From NCBI GenBank assembly GCA_030141605.1, contig JAQGDQ010002381.1:303786-367785 (forward strand): DNA of 64,000 nucleotides. Direction: 5' to 3'. A model generated the notes under the pieces. It was not told where the DNA came from, ran no database searches, and saw nothing but the letters and a program-made list of their open reading frames with translations. This stretch comes from Tubiluchus corallicola (Eukaryota > Animalia > Priapulida). A program made the translations under genes and the position numbers. This document shows positions 13,714 through 16,631 of this stretch, one piece after another; within the stretch, counting starts at the first letter, position 1, and each line of letters begins with the position of its first letter.

Positions 13714-13813
13714 TCGGAACAAATAAACCAGGCATTACCGCTGAACGAAAACAAATTATACGGTCAAAAATACGTGCAATAGGCCGCATTGCACGCATGT
13801 ATCATGTCCTACG
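13714..13813 (+). CDS. PPP3CA: Calcineurin A alternative calmodulin-binding exon (variant), 100 nt: VGTNKPGITAERKQIIRSKIRAIGRIARMYHVLR
   Basis: ttttttgcag| and |gtaagt; open frame, phase 1 in and phase 2 out; clear paralog of 16544-16631. Confidence 0.88.
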
Positions 13814-14105
13814 GTAAGTGGAGAAGCGAACCACCCTGGAAACCTCCGCATTGCATGGAGTGCCTAGTCGTCGATGCAAGTGCTAATGCATTAGAGATGC
13901 CTGCGGCTAATACTAACATTATATTGTTTCTAAATAGAGTGTATTTGCTTCCGAAGTGAAGAGAATTCTTAAACCTAACCGGGCACTAAACTTATTTTTT
14001 AATAAGTGCCTTACTGATTTGATATTGAAGCAACGATTCAGTAAATGCCCTTACTAGTTACACTCGGTGTTCATTTCACGGTCCCCTTATTACTTTGCTT
14101 TACAG

Positions 14106-14201
14106 GGAAAAATGTCGATGAGTTAATAAAAGAATTAAAACTTATTCAGCCTGTGTGTGTTCGCTCAGACCTAAGACTTGCGGCATCAGATGAAGACCTA
14201 G
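14106..14201 (+). CDS. PPP3CA: Candidate alternative exon: in-frame 96-nt cassette (GKNVDELIKELKLIQPVCVRSDLRLAASDEDL) or terminal exon (REKCR*)
   Basis: Strong acceptor ctttgctttacag|, donor ctag|gtataa; open in phase 1; in phase 2 it gives TGA at 14119 followed by AATAAA at 14125. Confidence 0.5.
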
Positions 14202-14656
14202 GTATAAGAACTGCGAATGATGCGCTTTATTATTAACAAAGTGGAGCTGAATATGAATTGTGCTGTTGCATATAATTAAATATGACTGACTAACATTTTT
14301 TTTTAAATTCTGGTTTTGTATTCAGTTAAAGAATAGGAACTTGAGCAAAAAGTACGAATTGATCTTTTTTACCTTTGTTGTTATTTAAAGCCCGTTGGCT
14401 TTTTTGTTGTATGAGTAGGTGTGCGTGTGCACGTGCGCGCGTGTGTGTGAATTTTATATTGTTATTCTAGAGTTGCCAGATTTGGCAGTTTAAGTCCTTA
14501 AACTAGTGTTGAAATTTATCAACGACCATCAACAGTTTGGAATATTATTAAAAAAATGAGAATATGCACTTATGGCAATGTTACTTTTCGTAACACTGTT
14601 CGTATTTCCTGACTTGTGTGATGTTTTGATTTGGGTGCCCTGCTGTTTTTTTTTTT

Positions 14657-15544
14657 GTCAGTATATGCTTATGTTCAAGTCGACCTTATGTACAAGTCGA
14701 TGTGCATTTGAAGACCAAAAATTGTATCATTTTGTATATTACCTGTGTACAAGTCCACCCAAAAATATTAAGATCTTCCAGAGTAAATGATGTCAACAAT
14801 GGCCGAGTAATAAATCAATAGCCTACTGTGTTAGTGTGTAAGATACGTGCAAGTGCCTGGGCCGAGTATATTATACCTACCCGATGTATATATATATATA
14901 TATATATATATATATATATACTCATGTTGAGGGCCATCAATGCAATCCATGATAATGCAGCCTGGCCTTTCATCACGCATAATTGTTTGTAATGCCTTTA
15001 ACGCTAGTATATCGAGCCCAGGATCCGTCGTAACATTTCAGTCGCTGATTTCTCAATTAAAACTAAAAACACATACCTGAAACGGCACAGTTTTATTCAG
15101 TAACATCTTTTGAATAGAAATACATCTCAGTTTTCAAATATCAATTCCGTTTATGCATATTTACGCTAGATTTTCAACAGTCAGTATCAATCTGAAGATT
15201 GTTTTTGCTCCTATATTTACATGTACTGATCGAGTGCTCCGTCGCTAGTTCATTTGCCGGTAATATATAAATTTTAACTTAATTTCACATACATTAAAGT
15301 AAATTGCAGTAATATTTCTTAATTTTGTGAAGTAAGATGCAAACATTCTCTGATGTGAAGTATCACAGTATGAGTGTTCATTCAGTCCAGTGTATAATGA
15401 AGGATTATTTCTTTACATATTCGTATTGTAGACGACTCTTTAGCGACATATCCCAAAAACTTATCTTAAGTATAAGTCGACCCGAAAAATTTCACCTTAA
15501 AATCGCCTCCCAAAAATTCGACTTGTACATAAGTATATACGGTA
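14657..15544. mobile_element. Tc1/mariner-type MITE, nested
   Basis: Imperfect TIR: CAGTATATGCTTATGTTCAAGTCGA ... TCGACTTGTACATAAGTATATACGGTA. Confidence 0.65.
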
Positions 15545-15718
15545 CTATGTAGACGGTTAACTTCACTAATGCCGCCCATACTACTAATTGACATTAATTA
15601 GAGACCTTCTTAAGTGCAATATGCTGGAGTCAAAGTTTAGAAATGATAAATCTCGATTTTTATATCTTACAGTAACATCTTAGCGTCTGTTTCTTTCACC
15701 TGTTTTGTCATGCTGTAT

Positions 15719-16172
15719 CAGTGGAGGCTTGTAGCTAAAATAAGTGGGGTGCTGCTTCAGGAAATTTTTAGCCATTGTTTTAATGCTATGCAAAATGAAA
15801 CAAAACATATGTAATTTTAATGTTGTAATTTGTAATTGTAATTTTAAACAAACAAGCATACAAAAACATACGTAAACTTGATAAAATCCTAAAAGAAAAA
15901 AATTTTGCTTACGAATAGCCTAAATTGCTGCAGTTCAAGAATATGCCAGTACATGGTTTTTAAGAACGTGACAACTGACAACTGTGTGAGTGACAGTACT
16001 TTCTCTACCTAGCAGCAGATGCTAGCAGTGCAGCACAATCATGTGCTCTGGTTCCGTACAAGTATAAAGAAAGAACTAAAGAAAAAAGACTTATTGTATT
16101 GAATATTATCGATAATATTGAGTGAAAATAGGGGGTGCTGCAGTTCCGATACTTATACACAAGCCGCCACTA
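15719..16172. mobile_element. hAT-type MITE, nested
   Basis: TIR CAGTGGAGGCTTGT ... ACAAGCCGCCACTA; near-perfect 8-bp TSD TGCTGTAT/TGCTGTGA. Confidence 0.7.
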
Positions 16173-16543
16173 TGCTGTGAACTGGTTTAAGTGATTCGAC
16201 AGCACGCGCCCCTTTATATGCCATATATCTCTCATAATTTATGTACTCACAATGTTAAAAAAATTCCTGGCTTATAATCTGGCAACTCTAGCGAAAATTT
16301 AACAACTGTTTGTTACTGGTTTTTTTTTATTAATTATTTTTCTTTTTACAGTTATACTTTTTTTGGAGAACTTAATCAGTTATAGTTTGATATGCCTTTG
16401 CTTGTATATTAATAAATATTTGTCATATTTATAGACTAGAAAACTTCGGCTTCAGTAGTGGTCTGAATCCTTTATTAATATTTTGTGTGCGAGTAACTTA
16501 CTAACACGCTCATGCATGATTTGCTTGCTTGATTTGCCAACAG

Positions 16544-16631
16544 GGGGAGCTGCAGCAGCAGCACGGAAAGAAGTGATTAGAAATAAAATTCGGGCAATTG
16601 GTAAAATGGCAAGAGTATTCTCCGTTCTGAG
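16544..16631 (+). CDS. PPP3CA: Calcineurin A canonical calmodulin-binding exon, 88 nt: [30 protein letters not shown]
   Basis: TACTAAC at 16499, caacag| and |gtgagc; helix identical to the vertebrate CnA-alpha CaM-binding region. Confidence 0.97.

Follow-up and report, generated by a model that had tools for sequence, protein, structure and literature searches.

Two versions of the calmodulin-binding exon, very probably spliced one at a time, in the calcineurin A gene of the priapulid Tubiluchus corallicola

In a 64,000-nt stretch of Tubiluchus corallicola DNA (hereafter the window), we found a calcineurin A (CnA) gene carrying two homologous versions of the exon that encodes its calmodulin (CaM)-binding helix and autoinhibitory segment (AIS). 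Few regulatory elements of animal signalling are as conserved as this helix. The two exons, referred to as A (variant) and B (canonical), are very probably used in a mutually exclusive manner. On balance, their sequences favour a single gene giving a canonical enzyme with exon B and, with exon A, a variant that has lost Ser411 and for which looser autoinhibition is predicted, each exon being spliced in singly. What appears new, in the literature searched, is the swap of the CaM helix in calcineurin; mutually exclusive exons as a class, including the tax-6 pair of Caenorhabditis elegans, were known.

Of the gene, the window contains the 3' half, with ten coding exons on the + strand between 5744 and 19569, and four CnA proteins used as tblastn queries matched these ten exons in order. 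The PPP catalytic domain's C-terminal half, the CnB-binding helix, the CaM helix and the autoinhibitory domain are all present and collinear, which identifies the gene as calcineurin A (PPP3C). The N-terminal metal-binding motifs GDxHG, GDYVDRG and RGNHE are absent from the window, the earlier exons lying upstream of it. The exons are as follows.

5744..5883, + strand: CnA coding exon, catalytic domain, LLWSDP (frame test, tblastn)
6822..6899, + strand: CnA coding exon, RAHE (frame test, tblastn)
8513..8607, + strand: CnA coding exon, FSAPNY (frame test, tblastn)
9422..9547, + strand: CnA coding exon, start of the CnB-binding helix (frame test, tblastn)
10175..10252, + strand: constitutive exon 5' of the pair, end of the CnB-binding helix and LR1, phase 1 exit (frame test)
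13714..13813, + strand: exon A, variant calmodulin-binding/autoinhibitory exon, AIS reading ARMYHVLR (frame and codon tests; Priapulus X2 counterpart)
16544..16631, + strand: exon B, canonical calmodulin-binding/autoinhibitory exon (frame test; a contig joins it to 17141)
17141..17238, + strand: constitutive exon 3' of the pair, EESES, distal-helix region (frame test, contig of run X1)
17858..17866, + strand: 9-nt in-frame microexon, LR2 (splice sites; a run X1 contig has its letters between 17238 and the last exon)
19412..19569, + strand: last coding exon, autoinhibitory domain and stop (frame test, contig of run X1)

The microexon sits in LR2, at a site of CnA splice variation in worms as in vertebrates. 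Downstream of the last coding exon, a possible long 3' UTR extends over 19570-23000, with an AATAAA near 22975 after which the character of the sequence changes.

Exon A is 100 nt long, lies between acceptor tcttttttgcag and donor gtaagt, and encodes GTNKPGITAERKQIIRSKIRAIGRIARMYHVL(R). Exon B is 88 nt long, with acceptor atttgccaacag and donor gtgagc. Both lengths are 3n+1, and both exons are entered in phase 1 (from 10252) and left in phase 2 (into 17141). When the window's coding exons were joined through either exon alone, a single stop was encountered, at the natural end (291 codons with A, 287 with B). Counting codons of the in-window part, inclusion of both exons led to a stop at codon 218, 149 nt before the last junction, and omission of both to a stop at codon 182, 69 nt before that junction. 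A first, sequence-only reading had proposed that these are homologous exons with good splice sites and matching phases, and that using both or neither shifts the frame; the frame analysis confirmed both points. The pair has adjacent homology, same phases, intact sites and a frame open on single use only, all of them features of tandem-duplicated mutually exclusive exons. A third copy of the CaM-helix exon was not found within the window. The idea that exon A is a separate paralogue or a pseudogene fragment was rejected, as the doubling is limited to this exon.

One contig of run X1 joins exon B to 17141 (GT..AG); beyond that exon it reads into the 9-nt microexon and from there into the last exon. 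Run X1 is RNA by guess, and its exon letters differ at 6/100 and 9/166 positions (about 5-6%), indicating a diverged population or a relative; within this presumed RNA run, the contig shows the B-only exit. No cover was obtained on exon A, a blank that is uninformative since the five constitutive upstream exons were equally blank, and no other RNA run was listed as containing exon A. Use of exon A in transcripts is supported through a relative, by isoform X2 of Priapulus caudatus, a predicted RefSeq model.

In a search with the last exon, P. caudatus ranked first of 298 matches. A tree built on 35 rows and 265 columns, with a single priapulid and without kinorhynchs, loriciferans, tardigrades or onychophorans, placed the window CnA as sister to that of Priapulus (support 99/95). 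Identity with Priapulus X1 was 89.8% over 284 aa; in raw bit score, Priapulus was slightly surpassed by several tick proteins. The RefSeq isoforms XP_014677380.1 (X1) and XP_014677387.1 (X2) are 495 aa each and show 11 differences, all within 385-409, that is, confined to the CaM-helix exon. Predicted RefSeq models of this kind generally rest on aligned transcripts.

The two priapulid pairs thus swap the same exon. Exons A and B differ at 9/24 helix positions (391, 394, 395, 398, 405, 406, 409, 410 and 411, in human alpha numbering), and the six helix positions changed in X2 are all among these nine (hypergeometric p = 6e-4, for positions that are not equally free to change). The derived residues R405 and Y410 are identical in exon A and X2, and V409 and S411 are replaced in both. 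Exon A is the more diverged of the two, and the longer: it adds four linker residues, whereas X2 and X1 are equal in length. X2 keeps M406, M406I being confined to exon A of the window. These likenesses would be explained by one duplication, before the split of the window species and Priapulus. Since X2 has R401 and X1 has L401, the X2 exon did not arise recently by copying of X1's present one. Parallel change after separate duplications is also possible, because exon A has fewer residues in common with X2 (17/24) than exon B does (18/24). Two side observations concern the Priapulus models. R401L (KILAIG), in the X1 canonical exon (P0003), was absent from every other animal helix in our collection. 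The X3 model (P0002) skips a 42-aa exon equivalent to window 9422-9547, thereby losing much of the CnB-binding helix, and is either a real isoform or an artefact.

Over their last 24 codons, A and B agree at 15/24 residues, 19/24 second positions and 6/24 third positions, which translated into a pS of 0.86 and a pN of 0.28 (Fisher p = 3e-5 on 24 codons). Silent sites are saturated, and the replacements are conservative. Since silent drift of B itself inflates pS, we simulated a copy dead from birth: at each of 8 ages, 0/4000 runs matched protein identity and silent divergence jointly. The replacements in exon A had a mean BLOSUM62 score of +1.2, and only 6/2924 neutral sets of nine replacements were equally conservative. 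The simulations and the conservative replacements argue that exon A was selected over a long time, and that selection is probably still acting. Both copies bear the signature of purifying selection, with recent decay of A still fitting in part. The codon tests, together with the Priapulus X1/X2 pair, support the earlier proposal of an old duplication under selection that serves as a mutually exclusive pair.

Recent decay leads to another scenario, in which exon A was once functional but, in the window species, has become a duplicate that is dead or linked to NMD. In simulations of late death, with long selection followed by recent decay, up to 25% of runs reproduced the protein identity and third-position divergence, and exon A does carry species-specific changes such as M406I. 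We nevertheless consider this scenario most improbable: exon A retains an intact AG and GT, a strong pyrimidine tract and a consensus GTAAGT donor, its replacements are of a conservativeness that neutral sets seldom reached, and it has an annotated counterpart in Priapulus.

To situate these changes, we collected CnA helices from 434 stored proteins, of which 366 had the helix (68 fragments or mispredictions were dropped) and 364 remained on excluding A and X2. The set is non-independent, with many isoforms from arthropods and vertebrates, and covers 30 clusters by member; clusters outside these 30 may hide a variant helix. In exon A, the AIS changes are V409M, F410Y and S411H, alongside K405R and M406I; across both species they read V409M/I, F410Y and S411H/N. 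The changes common to A and X2 cluster at 405-411, in the AIS. Phe410 was found in 364/364 other helices, and Met406, given as oxidation-sensitive in the sequence-only reading, likewise never varied. At position 405, 360/364 had Lys and 4 had Arg; at 409, Thr was present in 12/364, and neither Met nor Ile in any. Position 411 was Ser in 293, Thr in 48, Gln in 20 and Ala in 3. The helix had been described as near-invariant, S411 included, which does not hold at this position, replaced in 71/364 ordinary helices. The sequence-only reading had also singled out S411H, M406I and the change of VF to MY. From that list, F410Y gains weight, falling at an invariant site, while M406I turns out to be species-specific and the loss of S411 is less remarkable than F410Y, because 411 is replaced in 71/364 and F410 in 0/364. 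Gln or Ala in 23/364 ordinary helices indicates that loss of the S411 site is tolerated elsewhere.

What, then, might exon A do to the enzyme? The CaM motif is anchored by I396, I400, F410 (minor) and L413, with I403 as a mediator and R392, K393, R408 and R414 as basic residues (PMC6151454, partial text). All are retained in exon A, except F410, which becomes Tyr; net charge is +7 in both A and B, and the helical moment is equal. In contrast, AIS hydropathy was 0.88 for the canonical segment, -0.23 for exon A and 0.06 for Priapulus X2. The ARVFSVLR segment occupies a hydrophobic groove where CnA and CnB join (excerpt of PMC8470620, citing the primary paper), and the CaM region at rest blocks the LxVP substrate site (PMC7456046, in part). 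CaMKII phosphorylation of S411 inhibits calcineurin (PMC11358029, excerpt). Regulatory-domain inhibition beyond the C-terminal autoinhibitory domain was described as incompletely understood in the sections of PMC7456046 used here.

As charge and the anchors I396, I400, I403 and L413 are unchanged, the AIS and S411 appear as the likelier targets, and because the AIS of exon A is far less hydrophobic and lacks Ser411, we predict weaker autoinhibition and loss of the CaMKII input. The variant would still bind Ca2+/calmodulin, under looser autoinhibition and with the inhibitory CaMKII site S411 gone: V409M, F410Y and S411H would weaken docking of the AIS in the CnA/CnB groove, and weaker docking would lower the Ca2+/CaM threshold for LxVP-type substrates. 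The case for this mechanism, acting through autoinhibition and S411, is evenly balanced in our judgement. CaM binding may be altered as well, F410 being a minor CaM anchor. The counterpart of the tax-6 CMK-1 site, S443 (PMC12503234, partial text), belongs to the shared exon, and both forms retain it.

Another possibility, in line with the different Ca2+/CaM sensitivity put forward by the sequence-only reading, was that exon A is real and acts mainly on CaM binding kinetics or on the Ca2+ threshold, and not on autoinhibition. F410 would then count as a CaM anchor, albeit a minor one, within the stretch from I403 to L413 that contacts CaM (PMC6151454, same partial text), and exon A also alters E394, V395, N398 and M406 of the CaM helix. 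However, the unchanged charge, helical moment and four anchors speak against it, binding of CaM with a Kd of pM to nM order could absorb small losses (PMC7456046, in part), and the changes common to X2 are gathered at 405-411. We regard this possibility as unlikely. Slightly less likely again is that exon A is spliced in and near-equivalent to B, as a minor tolerated isoform under relaxed selection. Exon A has drifted beyond X2 (9 changes against 6), and the isoform effect of tax-6 13a/13bc was attributed partly to tissue expression and not to sequence (PMC12503234, partial text). Yet near-equivalence fits poorly with Y410 and R405 being kept in two species where the other helices have Phe (364/364) and Lys (360/364).

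We then considered how exclusive splicing might be achieved. Steric exclusion was rejected, the A-B intron being 2,730 nt long, and so was U12/U2 incompatibility, all four donors and acceptors being ordinary GT-AG by comparison with the U12 consensus. We found 174 inverted repeats, one of which spans the A acceptor (13709-13731 with 16182-16204, 78%). As for RNA pairing, the best duplexes at six splice sites were about equal to those in two control regions. With steric exclusion barred by a 2,730-nt intron and no RNA pairing rising above the controls, we infer that exclusivity is backed by decay (NMD) of the forms with both or neither exon. In a survey of C. elegans, NMD removed both/neither forms in 14/19 non-3n mutually exclusive clusters (PMC4165533, partial text). 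Like these clusters, the window pair is made of 3n+1 homologous exons.

The flanks of the two exons contain the following motifs.

13852..13857, + strand: TGCATG, motif of RBFOX type, 39 nt past the end of exon A (sequence match, putative role)
13911..13917, + strand: TACTAAC, QKI/STAR-type motif, 98 nt after exon A (sequence match, putative role)
16499..16518, + strand: TACTAAC (likely exon B branch point) then TGCATG, just before the B acceptor (putative role)
16641..16659, + strand: ACTAAT and TGCATG just after exon B (putative role)

ACTAAY/TACTAAC is presumably the QKI/ASD-2 (STAR-type) motif. Within 150 nt of A and B (600 nt in total), there were 3 TGCATG and 3 ACTAAY, where 0.29 and 0.41 were expected for motifs picked post hoc; the flanks of six constitutive exons held 1 TGCATG and 1 ACTAAY. 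One of the TACTAAC motifs is no more than a good branch point. Through these motifs, which lie around A as well as B, RBFOX/QKI-type proteins may set the switch, possibly in muscle. With motifs following A and others directly preceding the acceptor of B, abundance of such proteins would favour A; in worms, muscle is one of the places where they abound. The motifs after B complicate this reading of the layout, and a muscle bias of exon A is put forward tentatively. In the C. elegans survey, UGCAUG was reported in the flanks of 11/29 mutually exclusive clusters (PMC4165533, partial text).

Among the closest known systems is tax-6 of C. elegans, whose 13a/13bc exons are homologous, mutually exclusive and located in the CnA regulatory domain; neurons use at least 98% 13a and muscle about 65% 13bc (PMC12503234, partial text). 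The tax-6 pair, as presented there, encodes LR2, after the CaM helix, whereas the window pair swaps the CaM helix and AIS and shares the LR2 exon. As a matter of fact, the EESES exon (17141-17238) is single, unlike in an LR2 duplication of the tax-6 type. Splicing of mammalian CnA-beta1 also alters autoinhibition but replaces the C-terminal autoinhibitory domain, and the mammalian LR1/LR2 cassette exons only lengthen linkers (PMC12503234, partial text). No replacement of the CaM helix figures in the summary of known CnA variants in the excerpted text of that article. PPP3 genes were absent from the supplement file of human tandem exon duplications used here (PMC8373072, in part), in which the controls CACNA1C, PKM and CAMK2 were found, and from the available main text of another catalogue (PMC5740500). 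No description of a swapped calcineurin CaM helix, including the Priapulus pair, appeared in the literature searched, most subscription journals, figures and bioRxiv supplements being outside it. The sequence-only reading knew of no such swap in calcineurin: this stands, within that literature, for the CaM helix, and must be qualified by the tax-6 LR2 pair, which was known. The pair is present in two species and, for Priapulus, already stands in RefSeq without comment.

Other collections yielded little. A protein search with the exon A frame returned 5 candidates, none of which scored, and the variant helix was absent among the 120 matches listed of 655 in a region search with Priapulus X2. 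A metagenome scan gave 180 pattern matches and 4 loci (three fungal-type, one Q411-type), the variant helix being absent from them. With exon A, the ESM Atlas contained nothing above 0.85.

A search of 1.84 billion representatives with exon A had a sole match (P0435), a 111-aa reading that contains the helix twice in tandem, the copies 17 codons (about 53 nt) apart, each ending in a splice-donor-like reading. Because the second copy equals the exon peptide of Ostrea edulis, the sequence is likely bivalve-like. In the variant copy, E394 and R397 are changed and the AIS is untouched, and since these changes differ from those of exon A, the duplication is likely independent of the priapulid pair. 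With a spacer of about 53 nt, the two copies are possibly sterically exclusive. This suggests that the CaM-helix exon can duplicate more than once. A wider view is that priapulids switch tissue-specifically, muscle being the best guess, between a tightly locked and a de-repressed, CaMKII-proof calcineurin through exchange of the entire CaM/AIS helix, and that the exon was duplicated independently in at least one bivalve-like lineage. Taken as a whole, we hold this view to be rather doubtful. If true, the CaM-helix exon would be a recurrent evolutionary dial, and the natural F410Y an in-vivo-selected test of the AIS model.

The effect of exon A is known as a sequence-based prediction, in an organism that is not a model. 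V409M/I, F410Y and S411H/N nonetheless constitute ready-made substitutions, open to assay in tax-6 of C. elegans or with recombinant enzyme, that may separate CaM binding from autoinhibition and CaMKII control.

Finally, we noted other features in the rest of the window. A LINE-type reverse transcriptase remnant (RVT_1) occupies 25181-26320, and a LINE-like piece lies on the - strand at 24532-25095. From 29327 to 64000 extends a tandem segmental duplication that repeats every 14.4-15.8 kb or so, its copies 93-99% identical, 42513-49611 and 56901-64000 reaching 99.4% identity. Its copies carry an exon of the PhzC-PhzF family (30328, 46127 and 60514, the first two by scan). Within the same region, a short T/C-rich unit forms a tandem array at 49712-50524, with long open frames on both strands.
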